64,000 nt of DNA, taken from Ascidiella aspersa. Taxonomy: Eukaryota. The notes below the pieces were generated by a model. The model had not been told where the DNA came from and made no database searches. It saw nothing but the letters and a program-made list of their open reading frames with translations. This document shows, in pieces, positions 10,701-56,059 of this stretch (position 1 is the first letter of the stretch; each line of letters opens with the position of its first letter). The stretch lies in assembly GCA_963924565.1 (NCBI GenBank), contig OZ004609.1, positions 31,806,001 to 31,870,000 on the forward strand. Reading direction: 5' to 3'. The translations under genes and the position numbers were made by a program.

Positions 10701-13700
10701 CTTTGCTAATGCGCACGATTTGCAAGCTGCCCTGTCTGCATCTGGTAGCGCATTTTTAACATTTTTTTGTGACCACCCGTTGCAAGTTCTATATAACAAG
10801 AGGAAATAACTTGGGTACCGTATGTGCACGGATCAGTAATGCAGCTTGATAATGTTTACCTGATATCAAATGAAGATGATACATGTTAGTATCGAAACGT
10901 CTTTATCATTATGATGTCGATCTATGCTCGACCTTTTTGGCTTTGTAATTCAATATTAAGAGGAAAGAAACTGTAAAAAAATTCAGGCGTCTGGCGGTTT
11001 TCCACTTGCCTCGAGATAACCTGATGACAATTTCCAATTTTTTATTTTTTATCGGCCAACGCCCATCTATATAATTTTCCATCTATAAATTACCTTTTCT
11101 GATCTTTCTACGTGTAGCTAAGCGTAGATAACAAAATCGCGTCTCTGTGCAATTACAACTAACGCCCTTTAATTTATCAAATTGATGCTTAATGCTTCCT
11201 ATAAAAGTTTAATAAATATTTCCATTATTGAATCATTTTTGTTAGCGCACTACGAGGAATAAATGGAGCAAAAGTCCCCCCAAATGGGTCAAACGGGTCA
11301 TCAACCGAGCAAACCACAGTTTAGATAGGAGCGACACGCGCTCTTTGTGTGGTCTTTGGCGCATAAGGTCGACCAGGTGCCTGGGCTAATTCTGGCGGTA
11401 GCACTTTTTCGATCTGACATCGATCAACCCAAACTGCGGAGCGGTTCCATTGGGGTATTCCACTACAACAGAAATAACCACGTTACTCATGTAACCATAA
11501 TCATTATAGCACGAAAGAACGGCGTTTTGTTGATAAAAATACAAATAATTAACCAGGAAAATGTGTCTGTTTCAATAAAAGCTTGCAGTTTTAGTCACAA
11601 ATCACAAAAACAATACTAACTTCTTGTAAAGTTAAGAAGTGTGCAAAAAACATGTATTTAAAAAAATTATTTCAAGGTTAAAACCAATCACAACAAAATA
11701 AAATGCTGTTTTTCTAATAGTAGGTGTGCGAAACACTCCACTCGCTACAATGACCTTTTTTAGGGGTCATATAACTTGCACTATAAAAGCGGAACCAGCC
11801 AAATCGGAAAGTTAACTCTCAGAACAGGGTACCCTTTGCTAGAGTTCCCTTCTAAAATGCAAATTAAGCGCGAAATACACCCTTTCTCACGCAAAAAATA
11901 TGAGTAAAAAATATTCCTTGTAAAATAATGCCGTATTGCATAAATAACGTACACGAAAAAAGCACAGTTTATCTTTTTAAAGTTATTAAATTAAATACCC
12001 AACTTGCACTACTTTTTCTCTTTAAGCAAAGTAGGCAAAACCCGGGAGTTGCATTTCTGCGTTTTTACAGCAACTCCACGAAACACTGGCCTGTCTTATC
12101 AATCACATAAAATCGCGGGACTTTTTGCCTGGGGTCACACAACAAGAAAACAACGCCTTCAACACAATAAAAACTTTACACCACACCTCCGTTTCTATTC
12201 TAACTAGGTGATACATTTTCAATGGGTCTTACCACTTACAAAGTTAGCCGAAAAAGAGGAAATGCAAAAATGTCAGTCGATCGGTTTATTTGCGTGTTAA
12301 ACTAGCATAAACGGCACGTTGCCCGTTGTGACCCGAAGCTACAATCGCAGTGCAGGAGCGAAACGTAAACAAACATCAAACAAGCGAGAACAGTCGCACT
12401 ATCCGCGCCCGGGGCTCAAATATGTGGGACAAGGGTCGGTCCCGTGACATGAAATCCGACCCTAACGCCGCGATTAATATCTAACTCCGAGCACCGCGCC
12501 TTTGACAATGGCGATTTGATTTCGATATTGAATTTCTCCATAATTTGAAACAAGCAGAGGTCCAATTGAAACTCTAGATAAGACCTTTGCCCGATGAAAG
12601 TCCTGGGAGGGCCTTGATTTTAAAGTTATGGAAAGGGAGCGGATGTGCTTTTGACAATGAGATAAGAAATCTAAATCCCTACTATGGAGTTTTTGATTTT
12701 TCACACGAGAACCTGGAACGGATCTGCTATCACTTAAGCAAGCCTAAAGTTAAAATCTATAAGCATAGCTAAATTTTAACAGCTTTCTTTTGTTATATAT
12801 CAGATCTATCTTTCGATAAAAATTGCTGATATCCAATGGCCAACATTTTTCTAACACAGCAAATTTAACATTTCACAATGCAGTTGGCAGAATAAACGCC
12901 TAATTTCTGTCAATATATGTTTACTAAATCTTTCTTTCTTTAGGCTAATTTATGGAAACCAGAACTGTTGACAAACGCAAACGCTAAGTTTTAGTATTTT
13001 AGTGTAACGCCACGGCTAAAAATAAACATGTCATTTAACGGCAAGCAAATCGTTAAATCCCAACAGGCAACAAAAACATGGCCACGACGCTTCTCAAACA
13101 CAAGTATCTCAACCCAGCTTAAATACAGTTCTTCTCTGTTTCTAACGAAAACCCACTTCCCAGTTTTGCGCCAAGGAGAGGCGCGGTCTGTTGAAAGGCG
13201 CTTCCAAATTTAACCGGATTACTTTCGCGGTGTTTTAACCTTCTCTAATTACGACCGACGCCCTGGTCTTGAGAGAATAGCTCTCGCCGCTTAGTGCTCA
13301 GAGGTTGCTGTTGATGCCGCCTTGCGGTCTTCTCTATGCCAACTTGCACCCTAACTCCTGGCAATCGCTTGCAAAACATTGTTTAAAACACATTCCTTGC
13401 GAAGCAACAGCCAGACTGGGTAGGGCTTGGCGTGATATTTAGCTGCATATTTGGCAGGTTTAAAACACTTTGTTCGCTTGGAGGCAACTTGCTGCATTAC
13501 AAGGCATTGGTTTTTGCTTTCTTTGACAACAAACACAATTCTTTTTCAGCAATAGATCGGTCGGGTTAGTTTTAAATTGTCCGGTGTTTTGCTGAAGTTG
13601 TGGGGGAATACACATTTTTCTGCATTACTAATATAACCTATACCGATACGCTGTTATTAAACCAGCAGTTTCATCGAAAGTTGCGGTTTGTCGATTTGGT

Positions 13701-19700: not shown

Positions 19701-22700
19701 AAGATTAGGATAGCAATAAATATTCACAAGTGTATTAACAGTCGGTCAATATTATATTGTTACGCCAAGTAACATCATTCTGTTTTGTTTAACAAGACCA
19801 TGCGCTGTTATTTTTTAAAGCATTCTTTACCAACAAACTTCATTATATTTCACTAAAACACTTTCCGCAATTCCATTTTTAACACTTCCAAAGGACTTAA
19901 ACCTTAAGATTCTTTGGAAGCTAGGCATAAACGAAACTAGGCTAAACCAAACACGATAAAATCAAACAATGCGATTCTATAAAAAGCTGCATCTTCGTGC
20001 AAGCCTTAATCGGCAAAGATAACAAAATAGATGAACTGTTTCGTGGACAAAATCGTGCAGAAAAAGCCAGCGGTTCGTTGCCGGGTAACGTGTAATTTGT
20101 TCGGAAACCACCGCAAAATGTATAAACAAGCATCCCCCAACCCCTTCTTAAGACCCGTCGCTTGTTTTGACTTTTGATCTTGCATTAGAGCAGTAGAGGG
20201 GCAACGAACCGAAGCCGAATCGCTAGAATAGCGGCGAAGAACAACGGAAACCATCGGACAAAAGATGGCCTCCGAACGAGTCGACAACGGGTGTCAAACA
20301 GCGACCCAATGTCACACCGCAGCTCCTAAACGTGCTTTCATTGCCACGACCGTGACAGTACAGCTCAGCTCAGCGACGCTTAAGCGTACATAGGAGGACC
20401 TTTGCGACATGTGTTATGAAGCTCTGTATACACTGCGCGTTCATTGCCACTGCGCGCGACGATTTGTGCGTCAGGTTTCGACAAGATTGGGATCCAGCAC
20501 TCGGCTGAAGTAGTGATTCAGCGTCTGGCGATGCTACAGTTTTTCTTTTTTGTGCTGGCAAGGTTAATTGACTCGGGGAAAATGAATGCAAGTCATTTAT
20601 AGAGCTCGTTAGGTTTTTTTTATAACATCATTGCATCAATTGATACTTGCTTCGCTCTATTGTCATCGATAACAGGGTATTGTTATTTTGTATGGCATGA
20701 TATGACTTTGCATAAACGGCCATTCGGTTTATACTAATCGGGAGATAAAAGTAACACTTGTTTGTTGTGATTTGAACTAGCAGCCCCGGGAAAACAGGTA
20801 AACATATTTTCTTTAATTATAAATTGGTTGCCGACAACATTTTTAATGATACGTGTCAACGTTTAGATTACCTAAGCTTTTAATTCTAAAAACTTAAAAC
20901 TAAGCGAAAGATATATGTATGTCAAATATATACGTGTCCCATAATATTGTTATATTTCAGCTAAATCATATTATGAAGAAATTTTTATCATACAACGTCT
21001 TTGAACCACCGCGAAATTTGGTTATCCGTTAACACTTGACATTCGTTAATACTTAGGCGTTCTTTAATAACCCTGTTGTTGACTGGAAAACGTGTTCGGA
21101 GCTAGAAGCCTTTGCAAATGCCGTAACACATTTTGCAAATAATGGCTGAGCGGTAAATCTAATTTCTTGTTTGGAACGTTTTGCTGGTAACCACATGCCG
21201 TTATTACGTGAGTTGAAACAAGGAAATTCAATCGATGGCCTTTAAATTTAACAATACGCACAGCAAGCAAGTTGCGCAAAGCAACAAAAATTTCTAAAAG
21301 TTGCAATTTTCGCTGTCCTCATACATCGGTATCACGTCGTTGTTCGCAATTCTTATCACTTTTTTGCTAACGATATTAACATACTTCAGCAGTAACTTGC
21401 CATAAAAAGTAGAAGCTAGCGAGATGCCTACCTCTCTCCACGTCGTCGATCATGATTGGTTGGCTTCCTCTCAACGTCAAACCAAAGCTCTTTTCACCTC
21501 GAGGAACCTTCACAGATCTGTAAACACAAACGCTTGTTGTAAGACGAGCAGTAGTTTTAAACAACAGTTGGAAGAAGGTGCGCAAGCCTGGATCGTTTAT
21601 TAGCGGCGAATCAAAAAGAATATTTAGGGTAGGCTATTTGCAAAACTGATTTTGGTGGAAAACTGTAGGGTACCTTCCTTTACGTTACGTGAAACAAACT
21701 GAAGCAGTATTGTTTTGAAGGTTACCCCAAAATGTAATCAGGAATGAATTGGTCTAAACAGGGGTGTCCAACTCAAACATGCCGGCGTGCCAATGTTTAT
21801 CTTATAACTTTTTCCCGTGCCAAAGTTCAGTAACTAATTCTTTCTTATAATAACTAATTCTCTTCTAAACAATATAATGTTAAAGTATTAGAAGTAATTG
21901 TTTGTTGTCGTGCTTGCCGCGACTGTTTTATATTGTAAATAAACAATGACAATTTATTGTATAAAAAATTAAGCATTTTTTGACAATTGGCTGAATAACA
22001 AATTAAGTATTTTAGGGGCTCTTGCATGCCATTTTTTATTAGGTCGCGTGCCGCTTGTTGGACACCCCTGGTCTAAACAATGTCACAAATCCCTGGAAGA
22101 TTTTGAGTAAATCATATAAGTTGTTGGGTACACTATGTGTGACTGAAAAGCAAATCAAAGCTTCACTTATAAAGCTTGTGTCCTACCTTTTATAAGTGAA
22201 GCTTTGATTTGCTTTTCAGTCACACTGACTGAAGATGATACAAGTTCGTATCGAAACGTCTTAATCAAGATGCTGTCGATCTACTCGACCTTTTTGGCTT
22301 TGAAATTTATTATTAAGCTACATATAAGTTGCATTATACTGTTTTACTCCGCTTTGTAATTTAAAGCCCAGTCCCCTGTTATTCTATGTTGGTAGTGAAA
22401 CCGTGACGTTCATGGTCGCGAGCATTTCTTACAAGTACAGGAAACGATGTGAAACCGGCGAAGTGAGTTTCCTCCTGATGTTGCAAAGAAAACAGCGCTC
22501 TGCACCTTAAAATGCTGATTCCCATTTAGGCGACATACCGATGCGTTGCAAGAATCCCGTTGGCCAAAGCTTTCAAACCTCGAGATATGTGGTTGTTGCC
22601 GAAACGTAATTACGGCATTTTTTCAGCATGCATCTTGTTTGCAGAGCGACTCGACTCCTCAAAAGGGGGATTTAAAGTAAAAGATTGAACGCACGGTTCA

Positions 22701-25700
22701 GTGAAGCAATACGGACGCCCGTGACCCAATCACTTTTGTTTTGACACAAATACCACTTCTGCTGTATACACAGCTATCTTATTTCCAGCCTTATGCAACG
22801 ACACTTGTGCGATTTCTTAAATAAAAAAATTGTTTCCCGTGAGCACGCTATTTTGACACATTTTTATTGTTAAACTTGAACACATGATCTGTTACAGATG
22901 TGCTATAAATCCATTTTTTCTGAAATAATATTGTATTTTAAACCACTTCTTTGCCGATGCGTGGCCTATGCAAAGAATCACAATATTTGATCTGATGTAC
23001 TTAACTCGATATATGACGTTGCTGGACTAACTTATGTTCCTGGACTAACCTCTGGGTTGTTCAGGTGTCCAATGACCTTAGGTTTGAAACGACCTTTGAC
23101 CTCCAACTTAGCCGAAATGAACACCTATTTCTTAAAATTTGATTTAATTAAACCACATAAAAGTTCAATAAAAATATTAAAGTCGCAATATCGACGAAAT
23201 CGACATTTTATTGTTAACCAACGTTTCGGCAAAACATTATGCCGTCATGGGTATAACAATTCAAGTAAAAATAAAAGCGATAGCATTAAAAAGAAAAACA
23301 GGACAAAAGTAACATGAAAAGTAGGCTATGTATAAGTCAGTTAGTACCAGTTTGTAAAACACTAAATGCCTATTTTATTGAATATTATGGATTTTATATA
23401 TTTATCAAATTTTTTGGTTGCTTACATGAAATCAAATTTTAAGAAAAAATTGTGCATTTCGGTTAAGGTAAAAGTCAAAGGTCCTTACAAACCTTAAGGT
23501 CATTGGGCACCAATAAAACCGTATTCCAACAAGAACGAAACTAAAATGTAAGTAATTAATGTTGTGTTTCAGCAGGGCCCCTCATAGTTTCAGCAGGGCC
23601 CCTCATTTTTCTTAAAAATTCAATAAAAACGGAACTTCTGTAGTGCTCGGGATTTCCGCAAGGACTTGGGCTAGGCGGGGCGCTGACATCGAAAGAAAGC
23701 AAAAGATAAGTTTCCACCCGTTGGTCATGGGAGAACGCAATCTCAAGCAGCAAACTCGCAAAATAAGCGATAATAAGGCTGTAAGGTTATGAGCCTTTGT
23801 CGTACTAAATTTCTTTTTTTGCCTTTTCTTTTTTAGTCTTTTTTACGTGGTTTGTTTTCTATTTGTTGTGTTGTGTAAGTTCAGCTGCGGTAAGGCTACT
23901 GTTTCTGACCCGGGGGTCGTTTAAAATTGGTTTACGTAAACACGGAAACTTTCGCTTGGAAAAAATCTTAGAAAATAATGAGCGAAAAATAGATGCATTC
24001 CCGTGAGAAATTTGCTTCCAGGAAAAACAGTAGTGTCATTTGTAATGATTAGGAAGACATGCCTACAAAATACCCTTGGGAACCAGATAAGTTCCATTAC
24101 TATTTCTGACACATGTTTGTTGTTTCAGTGAGTGTGAATAGTTAAAGTTAAATTACGAAATCCCAAACGAATTAACTTAACGAATCAGAATATATTTTAC
24201 CAAAACAAGAACTAAATACACAATTAATTCATATAAATTTTTGTTTATTCTGCAATTTCTTATCGAAATGCATTGTTTGTAGCATAAACGGCGTCATACT
24301 TATTTTGACATAAAGCTGTGTTATTGTTTTTAGACGTGTTATTTGCCAACGCTATAGGCAATGTTCAAACATATATTTGCCAAACATTAAATTTAATTGA
24401 AAAAATATACGAAAATAAATCTGGTTTTATGTATGGTGCATTTTATTTGTAAAAAGCGGTTTTGATGGTCAGCAATACCTGATCCTTTGCACGTATGAAT
24501 TGACTCCCTGGTCGTGTTGAACAAACGCGTTGCAACTTCCGTTAGATAGCGCCATGGAGCAGCAACAAGATGGAAGGGAGCAATCACAAGTGACCAGGAT
24601 AGGAACATCGTTTAACGAAATCTACAGATCAATAATATCATGAATCAATATTACAATGAGCAATAATACTTAGTATGTAAAATATATTGTTCTCAGCGCT
24701 CTGCTAAATTCTTTGGCAAGTAAACAAAAATTCCAAAAGGATAGGAGTTTTGCATTTCTCATTTATCTTCGTCGCGCTGTGGCTGGAACTTCTTGTCCAT
24801 TTTTTGATGACGGTATAACATAGTTTATCAGTACTTTGTTGGAAAAGTATAGAAGCTATCATTTGCACACCAGTTTGTTGGAGAATATCACTCTTCGAAA
24901 GACTAATTTTTAAAATGTAACGTAAAAAGAATTTTTCTCTCAAATAAAACTCACAAGTTATAATCGAATATTTAAGTTATTTGATATTCAGTGTAATATA
25001 TACAGAGGTGAATGAAAGAAGTTGTTAAGTATTAAAGTGTGCTAATTTTAAGAGCGCGATTACCTGAGGCGCAGCAAACGTCGTATGGCCGGTGTTATTT
25101 TGAACCGCCATGATTCGGTCGAAAGCGTCTTTGTGGTGTTTCGGAATGAAATATCTGAAAAAATCATGATGGTTTTATTCCAATTTGACCTATCTCTTAT
25201 CTCTCGTCCTATCTCTTTTCTACCGGGTATGTAAAAATACCACAAAAATGAAACCTACTCAGTTTGCATATATTCTACAGCAACCACTGTGGACGAACAG
25301 AAGGCCTAGTTATTGGTGACCATATCGAACATAAGCTTGAGCGTCGACAAAAACAAAATAATAAATTGTTGAAACAAAAACTATGGATTCTACCTGAACT
25401 AAGTAGACTGTGTCAGTTTTGCACTTATTTACTGTACACTGAGAGCCTTGACTAACGCCAATCGAAATCACTCGGCTTATTAAGGTTTGTCGTCATCGTC
25501 CATCAGCATAACTTTACAAGGTCAAGCCCGCATATGTATTAATATGTATACATGGGGGAATAAAATAAGTAAAAACAACACAAAAATGAAACGAAACCAA
25601 GTGTAGCTCAGTTGATAAAGCGATTGTCCCGATGCGTCTACAAAGATATTACTGTATGTAAGGTTATAAAGCCATGCCTTAGTATGGAAATCCTCGAGAG

Positions 25701-28700
25701 GCCTAAGTGTAGGTCGGCCAAGTTAGATTGGTAACTCATACCTCATGTTTGCAAACAGCTCGTCCCGATTGGGGATATCCCCCAAAAGCTGATTAATCTG
25801 GCCGATGAAGAGCAAGATGTCGCTGTCGACTGAGTAGTTTTGAATGGCGGCCACAAACCGCTGCAAATCCTTTGTACGATCGCCGAGACAAGCCTTTATC
25901 TAACGAGGTTGTTTATAGAGTGTTTTATCGCTATGACAAATAGTTTGCAAACTATTCGTCTGACAAAACATAACAAGTATCTATATTATAGAGAATGATA
26001 CCATATGAAAAATTATTTGTTGCAAGTTTGACATCATCGGTAAAATTGCATTTTGTCTCCGGCTAAACTTAGCCCCATCAAGTGACCCGAATACCTTTAA
26101 ACATACAGTAAAGCGATTTTGTATCTTTAAGCATATTGAAGTAATATGTGACATAGTATACTTAAGAGTAGCCTACATGTAGAAATACATTAGAAAGCAC
26201 ATGTTTGGTTAGTGATTAAAAAATCCGGTTTTGCAAAACTTTACAATCTTACATTGTCAAGGAAATCTTTTGCTTTTTGTTGCCCAGCAGTTCTGTACAG
26301 CGTTTCTGATTCCTCTGAAGGCATTTCGAACTGTTCGACTTTCTGGGCAACTTGTTCTGTGACTCGCGGTGAAATTTCTTTGACCGATATTACGCCCACT
26401 TGTGCCCCACCGACGCGCACGCAATCTTCCAGTAGAGAGCGCGCTTGTTCAATGTCTGATACGATCATTTCATCGATCTGCAAAGATGTCAGAGACGGTT
26501 TTTTTCCGGATCGCTAAAAGTAGTATACTGCCATTTTTTCCTGAGTAACACCGGTTTTTGTGGGGCAGTAAATTACTAAAATTATTACTTACATTTACAT
26601 TGATATTAACATTACACCATAACCAAAAAGGTAAAAGTGTTAACCTTTTGCCGATGCTCAGTTCAAATCTGGCCCTACCTCCAAGAGGCGGCATCTCTTC
26701 CTTATGAAGATTGGTTGTCCTGAGGACTTGGTCCGAACAGATACTGACATTTAGGGCATTTCCAGCCTACTTTGTGGCCAATGGGAAGAAAAAGCCACTA
26801 CACGTTCACCCCTTATAGTACTTTACATTACTTTGTTTACTTTCTTTTAGTTAGTAAAATCAGAGTTGTTCAATCAACTCCTCAACATGGCACGCTCAAG
26901 TCAAACCCTAGATTTGCTAAATGCAGAACAAATTTTACACTTCTTTATATTAAAGTTAGCAAAGCGTTTTAAGGCAGCGCTATCGTATTGTCATCTAAAA
27001 TCTAGATTATAATAACGCACGCCTTGTTTTATACTACTGGTTGATACTGTTAATGCTGTGCTAAAATGTTGTACCGTACTCAATAAAACCTTGTCATGTA
27101 TCATTTGTAAACGTGCTCTCCTTCAAAGAAAAGTAAAAACATGTTCAATTTGTGGTTATTTGCTTTTTGAAATTTACAATTGTATAAACATCCATGGATG
27201 TTTCTTTTATAATATTTAGAAATAAAAAAACTTTATTTTACATACCTAAAGCAATTTAAGCATAAATAATAAATAATGCAATTACAGAAAAGGGCAAAAT
27301 CAGTGTGATAAAAGATGCTTATTTGCCAGAAAAAAAGACATGACACCTACCTTGATGAGAACATCTCCTGATTTTAGGTTGGTATAGTATGCCGGACTTC
27401 GTTGTACCACGTGGTCGATAATCACCGGGAAAGGTCCTTTCAAGGTCAAACCGAACAACCGAATGTCAGACGTCGGGGCCCTTTAACAAGGACGGATTAA
27501 CGTTTGAACTTTTACTTGTTAGCACGTTGCTGACAAAATAACTGACATTACACTTGATTCTAGGTTACATAGAGTTATACATGGTTTAATTTAAAAGGGA
27601 TTAAGGTTTAGCTTATCCACAAAACCACACGATTCCTATGTGGTAAATACGCGTATCTGTCTAAAATTTTTAATATATTCTAAAAAGATACAAATGTCTT
27701 TTATCACCCTCTGTAATTTACAAAATTAGTAATCCGTTCGATCAAATTGACTCGTAAGCGTCTAAAGATGATGTCTTTAAAACTGACGTTATCAGTTAGA
27801 TTATTTTGATATAAACAAAAAGAACACAGGTTTTCAATTACCCTATTTAGTGTCAACCATAGATGTAAGATGGTGCATTCGATAATATAAAAGTTTCCTG
27901 GTTGAATATAATGGTATGGGTAAATATAATGGTACATCACTGAAGGTAAATTTAGATGATGTAATATAGCGTGATAAAGACGTTTAACAAGTTTGCAAAA
28001 ATCCAACGAACGTACTAACAAAACAATAATATTTGAGAATGCATTTGCATAACTGAAAAAAAGTTTAAAGCCGCGGTATTGTAAACTTCTCAAGTAAAAC
28101 TACTTAAAACAAAGACACGTTTTTAATAGGACGTTAATTATCGTTCTAAGATGGAGGGTTTTCATGTTTGTAGAAAACTGTCCGATTGAATCTACGTCGC
28201 AGTTTCCTATTCTGCGGATTAGGGCAAGACATTTAGTCAATAAGACAATCAATAAGCAGATCAAAAAAGGTCATGTCATTCAAAATCGCGCCTCTGGCCC
28301 TATAGCGAAAGTTTATCACGCCACCGTTGCAAACCCGAACATGTGAAAAAAGGCGAGAAACATCCAAGGTACTCGAGGTGCATACGCAATGGTAACAACA
28401 CAACAGGTGCCATTGTATTTCACGTCTGAGGCTGTACAATTCGGTATTTGGTCGTGATCGGGCAAGAATTCGCGACCGCAGGTGTAGCAAATTGGCCTGT
28501 GAGTTTGCCATCTCGAGCCCGAAGATAAGTCACCGCCTTCACCAAGAGCCTTTGCTTAAGCAATTCGTTCGGTTAACCTAGCGGTCGACAAACTACCGCT
28601 TTCGCTGTTCTTATTTTTGGCCACCGTGGCTGCCCTAATAAAGTCAACGTTCGGATATTACAACGGTGTTAACTGATAGTTTTTAAGATCCACTATTTGT

Positions 28701-44280: not shown

Positions 44281-45949
44281 GTAAGTGGGGTCTTTATCAT
44301 TTTAGCATACTTTACCTAACTACCTAAATGTACTTTTCCAATACTGTTTTATATGTAGTGGTCCCGAAATTTTGGTAAAAAACTAATGTAAATAGCTTAT
44401 GCTCTAAATATGTGCGTCGATATAAATTTGCATGAACTTATTTTTATCTTTCATCTAATATTCACACCTAAACCACATTGATTAAATGTATAAATTTTTC
44501 ATATTTAGTTATAGAGAGCTACCCCATGCATATGTATATATACTTGAGCCTTTTTATCTTTAATTTTCATAAATTTCTAAAACAAATAGTGCAGAGCCTG
44601 CATATTACATTTGTAAGTCAATGTTTATCAGCATATCGGCTTTTGCCTTGTTATTGAGGATTGGGTGCTACGAGCCCCTACGGTATTTTAACGGATTTTA
44701 GATTGTACGTATACAGTTAATCTTGAATAAGCAGTGGCGCGTCTAAATTGAACTTTCGTCTGACGCAGCCATAGAAAGCGTTTAAACGACAATCAGGCTT
44801 GTCAGCCGAAGTTAACGATCCAGTTATTGCGATGCAGAAATGACTTTGTCTCGCCTTTGCGACTTCCGTAGATTTAAGCCGGGTCAATCGCGTGATTAGC
44901 GGCGTAATTAAAGCAATTACTCGTATACGACCCTCTGGGGCCTGACACCGTTAAGTTTAAACGACGTTGCTCCTCGCCACTTCCAATAGAACAACGTTGA
45001 ATAAGCATCAGTCGAACATAAGCTTTAGGAAGAAGATGTAGAAGGTTGTTGATGTTTTATAAGGTTGAGTCTCGTGTATTTTCTGTTGGTTTCTTGGTAA
45101 AGTTTGGTTATATTATATAGGGTATAGGAATTTCAATTTATCACGCCAAACAACTATTCGATCACTCTGTTCACTGTTATGGTGACACAATTTATCATTA
45201 GTATTGGATTAGAAATGTGTTTTTTGCAGAAGAAGATCTTTACGTAATTCCCTAGCTATAAGCGTTTTTTAAACTATATTCAATTCAAACGAGTAGTCCA
45301 TGAACGCCTTAAGTAAAGCACATTAGCCGTACAATTCCTAGTGTTTATGGCGATAGGATGAAACAGTTTTAATATATTTTGAATAAAATCCAAAAGATCC
45401 TAATAAAATACGTTGATTTTTTACAAATACTTTATTTTTTTACATTGAGTGTAACTGATGCAATGGATAAGGGCTCCTGTAAAAGCAAACGGAACACTTT
45501 AATAAACTCTTTGGTAACAACTGACATTCTTTACAGTGATTTTATCGCATTCGGGGCACGCTTTTAGTCAGAGGCCACCGCAATGCAGCCTGCAGCGAAA
45601 TTTAACGAAATTTCCGTCGATGCCTTTCGAGATTGCGTAACAGTTTAGTAACGGGATCGCGCCGGTACACCAGCACGCTAATCTATCAGGAGACGACGTG
45701 GCAAAAAAGATTTTGATGATTTGGTAGCATTTTGCGAAAAACGGGACAGAAAATTGCACAAATTTAGTATCCTCTTATCGCGTGTTCGTTGTAAATGTCA
45801 GCTAACTTATAATAGCGTATTCGTTTCATGGAAAGATTTACACTTTATCAATTAACACGTTGTTATAACACGATCACAAACCACCGAAAGTTCGTTAAAT
45901 TCCAGTTGTATAAATTCTATTTTCCATCTACAAAATTTCCATTTAGACT

Positions 45950-46162
45950 TTCCATGTCCAACTATAAAATGTCAAGTTTTAGACAAACCATGTCCGACTA
46001 TATAAAGTGTCCAGTTTTACACATGTTAATTCTAGCTATAAAATGTCCAGTTTTCGACACTTTATATTCAGCTACAAAGTGTCCAGTTTTAGACATATTA
46101 AATCTAGGGGTTAAATGTCCAGTTTTCGACATTCTATGTCCAGCTTTAAATGTCCAGTTTTG
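45950..46162. repeat. Minisatellite, about 36-bp unit with core AAATGTCCAGTTTT(A/C)GACA, about 6 copies
   Basis: Core starts at 45970, 46008, 46044, 46080, 46116 and 46151; the intervening parts are also mutually similar. Confidence 0.85.
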
Positions 46163-49100
46163 AAAATCGTGAATTTATCTTTATCAAAGCGAGCGTCCCG
46201 ATAGCGATCGGTAAAGCAAGGGCAAGTAATATAGGCGCCGACGTCAAATCATACGAAAAGAGCGCAAATATCGCCACGGCCGGGTCTTTGCTGTCGCCCT
46301 GGGCTTCGAATGACCTCTGAGCCGGCAGCAATTAACATATATAGAGCTTTCTGTGTGTGTGACAGTGCCCGGTCATTAGCGCTTCCCAAACGGAGGCGAT
46401 TTGGCCGAATAAAACTTCCTTTTCCCGCCTGGACGCTGTAGTTTACTCCTACGCTAAACCGCAATGTCACAGCATCGACACAAAGTGCTGAATTTGGGGC
46501 TGCGGGCCCTGACACGAACTAGGAGTTGTCGGACTATAAATACGCTACGTATAGGAAGTATTTACTGGGTTAAAGCATTAGATTAAAATCCCTGAAAAAT
46601 TGCTTGCATTTCATTTTGGCGTGGTATTACATTTTCAACAGTAATACCAACGTACCATGTTATGATAATGTTTCAACTTTTGTGCAAAACGCACGTTATT
46701 TTAGGCAAGTAATAACAAGGATAGCAATAGCACGATCTCAATTTTTTTACTTAAATATTGCCAGGGATACTGGCCGAATAAAACAAATCAATTATAAGGT
46801 TTTTCTTAATTCTTTGTAAATTCCGCTGTGGCAACCTTAAACTGGATTAACCCAAACTCAGCCAACACAAGACGCTGGTGGTCACCACAGGTAAGTCATT
46901 CTGAGTAGACCGAAAACAAATAATGCCTGCAGGTGAACAGGATACACGTATGCCTTACCGCACAATCAGTCAAACTAGATGTATTACCCTTCTCTATATC
47001 TATACCTCAAGCAGAATGCTTTTTCGGACATAGACGCTATCGTATAAGAAAAACTTGTTTTACTAGCGATGTGAAAGGGGGAGAACGAGACAGTACCAAG
47101 CCCAAAAGTGCAGCTATTTACCTCTTCCCTGTGGCCCGAGCCGACGCAATTTACCGCAAATTATACGGGCGAACGCGTGGCCCGCATTGCATTGCAGTGA
47201 CACAGGCCGCAAGCGTATATCAATGTGCCAATTGTAGCGCTTTCAGGGGGTGTGCCCCTATCATGGCAGAAGATCGGTTTACGCGGTCGTTTCCGAACTG
47301 GCACAGGCTGCGCCATTGCACTCTTTTCTCATTTTAAATATAAGTTTACCTAAACTGTGCTAGTTTTTATTGATATTTGCCTATGTTTGAACACATATTC
47401 TACCTTGATTTTGTTTAAATCCTTTGTTTTTTTTAAATTGTTTGAGTTTTAAAATTGAAAGGTGTTACGCCATGAGAAAAATTGTGACAGCCGCCAGTTT
47501 AAAAATATTGTTTGCAAACGAATTCTGGAATTTAAATCTATGTTCAAGAAAATCAACGTTTACTAGTTGCTGTTTCATGACATCGACGGTCGAAGGAAAA
47601 TTAAATTGCCCCTTAATGTAAAAAAAACCTTCCGAAAATCAAAAATAAAGATGGTTTGACACTGATATGACCTATGTGTTTTACCATATGGTTATGTTCC
47701 TTTCCAAATTTTCAGCATGTAGCTTTACTTAATGCAATTTTTATATCCACCCTGCTTTTTAACGGTAAAAAGGCTTAACGTTGGAGTATAGTCACTTACT
47801 TATACCGTGTTTCAACGTTTTGCGCCTATTATCAGGTCGTTTAAATATCTGTTGTATTTTCAATGTTCGAACTCAGTTTTCCTACATTTAGCGCAAGAGA
47901 CGTGGGTGCAAACAACATAGCCAAGTACGTTTGAAGCGATCGTGCCAAACGGTGTCACATCAAACTTTTCGCCTGTCTAGATATCGGATGTCTCGCGCTT
48001 AAACGACCAGAGAGCGACGCGCGAGTCCAGAAACTTTGGCCACATTTCTTGGCTACTTTAAAAAGGCCGGCACCCTTTTTACTCAAAGCCCCTAGAGCCA
48101 ATTGGCCAAATTGTACAAGTTTAAACCTCTTTTTAGAGGGATATATCCCTAAAGCCCCACGTCGCATCACACAACCGCCCAACTCACCCCCTAAAACCCC
48201 GCAAAAAAGGGTTTCAAAAAAAGGAGCCGGCTTAAGAGCGGAAAACGGCCCCGTGATGAGTCGGCACGGCGCGAATTAGCCCCGAGCTAGAGCGATCGTG
48301 GTCGGGCCGCGTACGGACGCCGCCACACTTACAATAATCAAGTCGGACCGGTTTGGCCGGTGATGGATGCTGGTGTGGCTTCTAGAGCACTCGCGCAGCC
48401 ATTTAGATTGGCATTTGTTTTCCGGAGCTCGTGGTTTTGCTGTTGCCCATGGCCGATCCTTATCACGCGTTCGCCCACGCGTCTGCGATGCAAGCACGTG
48501 TACAACGCGTGATTCGGATCTGATTTGTGTGTTTATTGCATAACGTTCGCTCATTGGGTCTTTGTCTGAACGTCTTAGGGCGATACAAAGTACTATGAGG
48601 TCCTCTTTCTTCAAAAGAAGCGAATTTCCGTCCTGGTCTCATAGAAGTCTTACTACCAAATATGCAATACTATAGGACGTTTTGTTTCACTTTTTAAAAT
48701 TTGTGATTACAAAAAGATTACAACATCGGAGGAATTAAATTAATTAACACTTTTTTTACCATACGGACCTAAACATTTTCTGAAGACAAAAATCGCACCC
48801 TTATCCACAAGCATGGCTTTGAAACTTTCATAACGCAGAAAGAATCTTTATCAAAAATGACTTGCTTCAAAATAATAAAATAAGGTTCTTTCGTATTTAA
48901 CCAGTGCCATTTTTCGTTTAACAACCCAAATCAATGTACAATTTGACGATTTGGATTGTTTCGTACCAAATTGTTAATTTCAAACATTACGGTAACGGAG
49001 TTCAAACATTAAAATTTGTTTTCTCAAAAAAATAAAATGATTGAGCTTATTCGAGAATTCAATATAATAATTGTTTTCTCGTATATTACTTAACCGTGTT

Positions 49101-55783: not shown

Positions 55784-56059
55784 AGATAATAATTTGGAAC
55801 ACTATATACGGATCTGTTCATAAGTTTAATGGTGAAAATAACGGCCCAAATAGAAGTTAATTTCGTAGCTTCTTCTTCATTACAATACCGTAATGGTTGC
55901 CTATATACTTTGGAACACTATATACGGATCTGTTCATGAGTTTAATGGTGAATTTGGGCCGTTATTTTCACCATTAAACTTATGAACAGATCCGTATATA
56001 GTGTTCCAAAGTTTATAGGCAACCATTACGGTATTGTAATGAAGAAGAAGATAATAATT
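55784..56059. repeat. Fold-back insertion (direct and inverted copies of a roughly 100-bp unit) flanked by an 11-bp direct repeat
   Basis: Blocks B-C (55793-55851), A-B (55869-55952), then C'-B'-A' reversed (about 55952-56050) ending in GAAGAAGAAG; AGATAATAATT at 55784-55794 and 56049-56059. Confidence 0.88.

Follow-up and report, generated by a model that had tools for sequence, protein, structure and literature searches.

A polymorphic head-to-head insertion of a Penelope-type 3′ end with a minimal hammerhead motif in Ascidiella aspersa

Introduction

A hammerhead ribozyme motif lies directly beside a perfect palindrome in the genome of the ascidian Ascidiella aspersa. What kind of element left this pair of structures, and would its hammerhead be expected to cut? 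The question was addressed in the window, a stretch of 64,000 nucleotides (assembly GCA_963924565.1, contig OZ004609.1, positions 31,806,001 to 31,870,000 of the forward strand); all coordinates below count from its first letter. The original prediction was of a non-autonomous family, either Penelope-like or retrozyme-like. Our analysis indicates that 22125–22320 is, very probably, a recent, 5′-truncated insertion, arranged head to head, that derives from the 3′ end of a Penelope-type family with reverse transcriptase (RT) and endonuclease, and that the hammerhead is a motif of its pseudo-LTR that is likely inactive in this copy.

Results and Discussion

Bounds and empty allele of the insertion

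Both the hammerhead motif and the palindrome are contained in a 196-bp insertion, 22125–22320. The sequence of 22113–22123 recurs identically at 22321–22331, and reads of other DNA samples join 22124 directly to 22333. The 208 nt skipped in this way equal the insertion plus one duplication (196 + 12). The joint, supported by five reads with four starts (DNA run X12) and one contig (run X2), is the empty allele, and the insertion is absent from some individuals. Target-site duplication and empty site, the pair sought for an endonuclease-bearing Penelope-like element, were thus both found. The span of 22137–22317 given originally was too narrow, and the target duplication, a remnant of the element's tail and a 111-nt deletion had been overlooked. 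The features of the locus are as follows.

22113–22124, plus strand: left target-site duplication, 12 bp, from the repeat match and the empty-site joint
22125–22136, minus strand: final 12 nt of the 3′ tail in inverted orientation, at the outer end of the left arm; the reverse complement is the tail end common to family copies
22137–22173, minus strand: inverted pseudo-LTR fragment, the left palindrome arm, joined to the tail remnant across the 111-nt deletion
22176–22320, plus strand: right arm, a 5′-truncated, tail-less pseudo-LTR (3′ end) of the Penelope-type family, continuous with the RT-endonuclease frame in L024, L061 and L064
22191–22220, plus strand: TATA-like box (22191–22196) and initiator-like TCAGT (22216–22220), 27 nt apart, from sequence
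22224–22265, plus strand: minimal type I hammerhead, with helix I 5′ strand 22224–22228, core and helix II 22229–22256, helix III 22256–22259 and helix I 3′ strand 22261–22265
22270–22320, plus strand: probable start of the element's reading frame (17 codons), within the pseudo-LTR, open from ATG 22270
22321–22332, plus strand: right target-site duplication; 11 of 12 bases equal the left copy and the last differs

Arms, tail and left-arm deletion

The inverted repeat is perfect, as predicted, with 37-nt arms (22137–22173 and 22189–22225) that are 100% complementary across a 15-nt spacer; the 4-nt gap between the right arm and the start of the core was also correct. The inverted terminal structure anticipated there is a head-to-head inverted pseudo-LTR forming the left arm, and the tail stands on this inverted arm only. 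In the left arm, the final 12 nt of the tail come first; a 111-nt deletion (length taken from locus L013) follows and removes this arm's own hammerhead. This deletion is the reason that the perfect palindrome is only 37 bp long and ends just before the core. Its junction, searched at up to one mismatch, occurs once in the genome, in the 22125–22320 insertion, and the deletion is private to the locus. A recurrent deletion subfamily is ruled out by the uniqueness of the junction. A long-range helix between the pre-core sequence and the tail, considered as a cause of the deletion, is absent from the predicted fold. The right arm differs from L006 by two substitutions, at 22179 and 22227.

Thirty top loci were fetched for a count of the family's layout, and 28 distinct ones remained once two duplicates were dropped. 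An inverted arm lies head to head in 20 of these 28. Apart from 22125–22320, 17 of the 19 head-to-head loci carry a full tail on one arm only, one has a partial tail and one has none. Exact target duplications of 10–14 bp flank 16/28 loci, most commonly of 12 bp (10/28). The inverted, 5′-truncated copy with a tail at one end, as looked for in endonuclease-bearing Penelope-like elements, is present at our locus.

Two further structures of this kind were seen in the window. A second, older head-to-head stub of the same Penelope family lies in the same gene at 10810–10960; its inverted tail is followed by a plus-strand arm of ~87% identity with the first core base mutated, and a script found a 9-bp duplication. 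At 55789–56053 there is a palindrome with 87-nt arms and no hammerhead, the inner part of which is the inverted tail of another Penelope-type family. This tail sequence also adjoins other minimal hammerheads in L113, L141 and L177.

A coding Penelope-type family

A family search with the right arm gave 2061 first-look candidates, of which 40 were scored; the best copies are 96–99% identical. The family is young and polymorphic. In longer copies the pseudo-LTR is continuous upstream with a reading frame of 309 aa (L024, where it ends just upstream of the pseudo-LTR), 433 aa (L061) or 419 aa (L068). Pfam RVT_1 matched above the gathering score in L061 and L068, identifying an RT frame. The C-terminal part of the L024 frame holds a VVY...YIGQT motif with two Cys and two His. 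The closest long homologues are 48–50% identical, and one at 48% (P0002) is annotated as RT plus GIY-YIG (PF01541). Direct Pfam scans of the endonuclease part, which is represented by fragments, gave no GIY-YIG match; motif and homologue P0002 together point to a GIY-YIG-type endonuclease in the family. A PDB sequence search with the RT returned nothing significant. The RT-endonuclease linker of L024 contains a single Cys, which fits the lack of an extra zinc finger given for the Penelope/Poseidon clade in the available text of PMC8557442, and inspection of the sequence would place the family in that clade.

The predicted Penelope-like link thus holds, as the same sequence forms the 3′ pseudo-LTR of copies with an RT and endonuclease frame. 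The non-autonomous family does not, since longer copies run straight into this frame. Given the continuity of pseudo-LTR and RT-endonuclease frame, the insertion is best described as a 5′-truncated copy of a coding family, not as a member of a separate non-autonomous one. In many copies the frame from ATG 22270 reads on through the tail for 26 codons. Neither a full-length element nor a source copy with its complete ORF in a partial tandem turned up in the assembly, where the longest copies end a little upstream of the RT, and the searches give lower bounds. None of 69 distinct tail flanks runs on into shared sequence. An insert splits one long Penelope copy (L064:2790–6573); the 640-aa frame of the insert looks intact and, judged by eye, resembles a hAT transposase.

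The minimal hammerhead

The core CTGAAGA-T-GATAC-AAGTTC-GTATC-GAAA-CGTC at 22229–22260 agrees in letters and position with the original prediction, and the assignment to the minimal type I hammerheads is confirmed. Both boxes (CUGANGA and GAAA), the extra base before helix II, the G-C first pair, a palindromic helix III (ACGU, pairs 15.2–16.2) and the UH site are all present, with the cut predicted after 22260. Helix II is predicted to pair with a probability of 0.96 in the isolated motif. The exact 32-nt core occurs 211 times in the genome (309 Mb) and not at all as a reversed control, and a general hammerhead pattern matches 3391 times against 22 in the control. The motif is therefore not a chance occurrence, weak as the loose pattern is within the window alone (a match in 5/100 shuffles). 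An Rfam scan up to E 10 returned no hammerhead match, only miRNA hairpin models below their gathering scores.

Genome-wide, the pattern falls into several families with differing helix I and II sequences in which pairing is kept. The young subfamily forms three Watson-Crick pairs in helix I, an older subfamily five. Over 30 pattern matches, which include copies of the same families and are not independent, the mean was 2.97 contiguous pairs against 1.14 when shuffled, and none of 2000 shuffles reached 2.97; helix I is thus kept across families, as sought for minimal hammerheads. The copy at 22229–22260 has three contiguous pairs, one of them G-U. Its helix I had been put at about 3 bp and the copy suspected to be inactive. 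Length and probable inactivity both stand, but three contiguous pairs is the commonest length (9/30), so a 3-bp helix I is no defect by itself.

Other features bear on activity. The G at 22227 is private to this copy: 1247/1296 DNA reads and 50/50 RNA reads (run X13) have A. It turns one helix I pair into G-U and perfects a hairpin covering the first box. The core is predicted to be fully paired when upstream sequence is included, and even in RNA starting at 22218 it would remain 0.46 paired, compared to 0.0 in L013. Cutting after 22260 would require a same-strand partner (a dimer through the ACGU palindrome) or protein help, and the 22125–22320 copy has no same-strand hammerhead partner. According to the available text of PMC4209133, single minimal motifs did not cleave in vitro, and that of PMC11167929 describes an Anolis motif that cut only with protein. 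The hammerhead of this copy is likely inactive, as suggested by the missing partner, the G-U pair in helix I and the predicted hairpin over the core. In RNA run X13, family reads occur on both strands, none with the G of 22227; read ends do not pile up, which fragmented RNA-seq would hardly show.

With the A-to-G change at 22227, a local inverted repeat at 22215–22233, centered on 22223–22225, becomes perfect and the hairpin over the core tighter. Such a change is, we presume, as expected of templated quasi-palindrome correction. A degenerate minimal hammerhead of a different family, with its first box broken, was seen on the minus strand at 23222–23250 within an inverted-repeat element (23055–23520). 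Loci L113–L192 hold several unrelated minimal-hammerhead families with differing, compensating helix I and II sequences.

Host gene context

The insertion lies in an intron. The exon nearest to it (21432–21517, 608 nt away) is on the minus strand, with canonical splice sites and a coding stretch that resembles PDZ. As originally proposed, the hammerhead thus runs antisense to the host gene and its pre-mRNA. For this gene, originally named as delphilin, PDZ matches were weak (E 0.2–1.2), a PDB sequence search with a host exon returned nothing significant, and the host exons had no coverage in RNA run X13. At 26498, inside the candidate host exon 26253–26513, all three other DNA samples have two extra bases, which means either a frameshift allele or error in the window or a wrong exon call.

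Alternative explanations

Could the locus instead be a retrozyme, a short, non-autonomous hammerhead repeat without coding sequence that is propagated in tandem arrays via circular RNA? The sequence is short, abundant and hammerhead-bearing, and retrozymes are reported to derive from Penelope pseudo-LTRs in the available part of bioRxiv 10.64898/2026.07.22.740005. However, the copies vary in their 5′ ends and reach into the RT frame, so that the family has coding capacity. The 28 + 30 loci read contain no head-to-tail arrays of a fixed unit, nor tandem 150–450-bp units each with a canonical type I hammerhead, and the motif is minimal as opposed to the canonical type I form described for retrozymes in PMC7229834, as far as its available text goes. 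Coding copies and the lack of tandem arrays in the loci read also dispose of the retrozyme-like family envisaged originally; for 22125–22320 we consider the retrozyme refuted and grant it hardly any probability. A host function of the 37-bp hairpin as an intronic RNA element (a microRNA precursor or editing substrate) has a practically negligible probability. The hairpin is very stable (z −11.4) and scores against miRNA models, but the perfect pairing of the arms accounts for these scores, all of which lie under the gathering thresholds (best 54 bits versus 90), and both the polymorphic site and the private left-arm deletion junction speak against a host function.

The left-arm deletion raises a further alternative, in which it was selected since a host-sense hammerhead would cut the host pre-mRNA; minimal hammerheads would then have to be active in vivo. 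The deletion takes out the entire minus-strand hammerhead, and the other family copy in the gene (10810–10960) likewise has a hammerhead-like core on the plus strand only, although that core is itself mutated. Strand bias was assessed by T-A skew, an indirect measure used without gene annotation that a weak bias would escape. A first test on the 54 of 82 examined loci with a core on one strand only gave −0.014 ± 0.006 (p 0.03), and skew does persist across flanks (r 0.43). The result was not replicated in 76 of 80 new 9-kb loci (+0.004 ± 0.004), where a count of donor motifs leaned the opposite way. Internal deletions also occur in other family copies (L205, L212 and L222). Neighboring cores lay on the same strand in 54/93 pairs, which is marginal (p 0.07). 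Selection against host-sense hammerheads is not supported, and we judge it very unlikely.

A possible start-site switch

The TATA-like box and initiator-like sequence at 22191–22220 lie at promoter spacing and form a possible pseudo-LTR promoter, within which 22208–22219 also reads as a 3′ splice site. Motifs of this kind are described for Adineta pLTRs in the available text of PMC3846280, and that of PMC2377424 reports a TATA-less internal promoter instead for D. virilis Penelope. The 5′ ends of genomic copies were counted in 51 arms of at least 88% identity, unselected for holding the core and including one duplicated pair. Twelve ends fell 12–1 nt before the core, 2 in the further-upstream 24 nt and 18 in the downstream 24 nt; the same three bins held 25, 5 and 30 of 99 arms when no identity filter was applied. 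Folds predicted for L013 have the first box 98–100% paired with upstream sequence when at least 16 upstream bases are included, and 0% paired when the RNA starts at −11. As a rule across 56 cores of other families (L113–L192), masking by upstream sequence was not significant (0.30 versus 0.21, p 0.11). A TATA-like box starts 53–36 nt before the core in 13/56 of them, compared to 0–8 in other 18-nt bins.

These folds and counts can be modeled as a start-site switch, which we consider rather unlikely. The hammerhead would lie at the extreme 5′ end of the element's promoter-started RNA. A start at the initiator, ~11 nt before the core, would leave the core free; read-through at the 3′ pseudo-LTR would lock it in a hairpin formed with the initiator sequence and so protect the template end. 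The step in the 5′ ends of genomic copies would then record the start, and copies would be made from uncut RNA. A literature search found no paper on such a start-site hammerhead switch within the collection it covered. If true, the switch would concretely explain the conservation of minimal hammerheads, which barely cut in vitro.

Proposed insertion mechanism

Returning to the head-to-head insertion itself, we propose a route from its layout together with the two-strand nicking and two internal RT starts described in the available text of PMC11167929. The element's protein would nick both strands ~12 bp apart in AT-rich DNA. From each nick, cDNA would be primed at either of two start sites inside the element, one including the tail and one lacking it; both cDNAs would stop early and be joined head to head. 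The 111-nt deletion may stem from a template jump during synthesis or from later loss out of a long palindrome. The tail asymmetry fits such stitching of two copies and is no proof of it. Cut RNA was considered as the template and rejected: of 51 unselected arms, only one has its 5′ end at the cut site, compared to 14 and 6 in the 18-nt bins on either side. In a single family copy, at L212:4490–4560 (G000:C3 near 5569160), the predicted cut site is joined straight to the tail. The 22125–22320 locus alone has little weight, being ordinary mobile DNA and one among hundreds of stubs of a known class. The family, being young and polymorphic, provides many natural snapshots of how Penelope copies insert head to head, which bear on the 12-bp stagger, the tail on one arm and the stopping points of cDNA.

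Comparison with known systems

The motif closely resembles the minimal hammerheads of metazoan Penelope pseudo-LTRs described by Cervera and De la Pena (2014) in the available text of PMC4209133. Shared traits are the type I core, the extra base before helix II, the G-C first pair, palindromic ACGU for helix III, a short helix I, and mostly single copies that number in the thousands and fall into several sequence families. Helix II is 7–8 bp in Schistosoma compared to 5 bp here, and the three contiguous helix I pairs of the young subfamily and five of the older one also set our family apart. A literature search combining Penelope, ascidian and hammerhead found nothing; the larger alignments of PMC4209133 may already contain a related family.

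The layout matches the inverted-pLTR insertions of Adineta Pen2/Pen2a, as far as described in the available text of PMC3846280 and in the scheme of PMC8557442: a 5′-truncated copy with an adjacent inverted pLTR, head to head, a tail of 30–40 nt on one end only and a short target duplication. The first of these sources also places TATA and initiator-like motifs and the first ORF codons inside the pLTR. In contrast, our insertion measures only 196 bp, its duplication is 12 bp instead of 8–10, and its inverted arm has the internal 111-nt deletion. The Poseidon element of Anolis (PAc; Frangieh et al. 2024), as presented in the available text of PMC11167929, is similar in several respects: a GIY-YIG-type endonuclease follows the RT, the tail is defined by two 3′ ends, targets are AT-rich, and nothing points to cut RNA as template. 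Its ORF starts inside the hammerhead, whereas here the corresponding ATG meets a stop and the open frame begins 10 nt past the cut site. Non-LTR retrozymes (available text of PMC7229834) are likewise short dispersed repeats of animal genomes with a type I hammerhead; unlike them, our family has no tandem units and no canonical hammerhead and is tied to a coding frame.

Other repeats in the window

Next to the insertion, at 21759–22071, lies a high-copy element with short terminal inverted repeats, a 7–8-bp flanking duplication and a read depth ~100× background, which we take to be a likely hAT-type MITE. A degenerate 36-bp tandem repeat of about six copies occupies 45942–46167.
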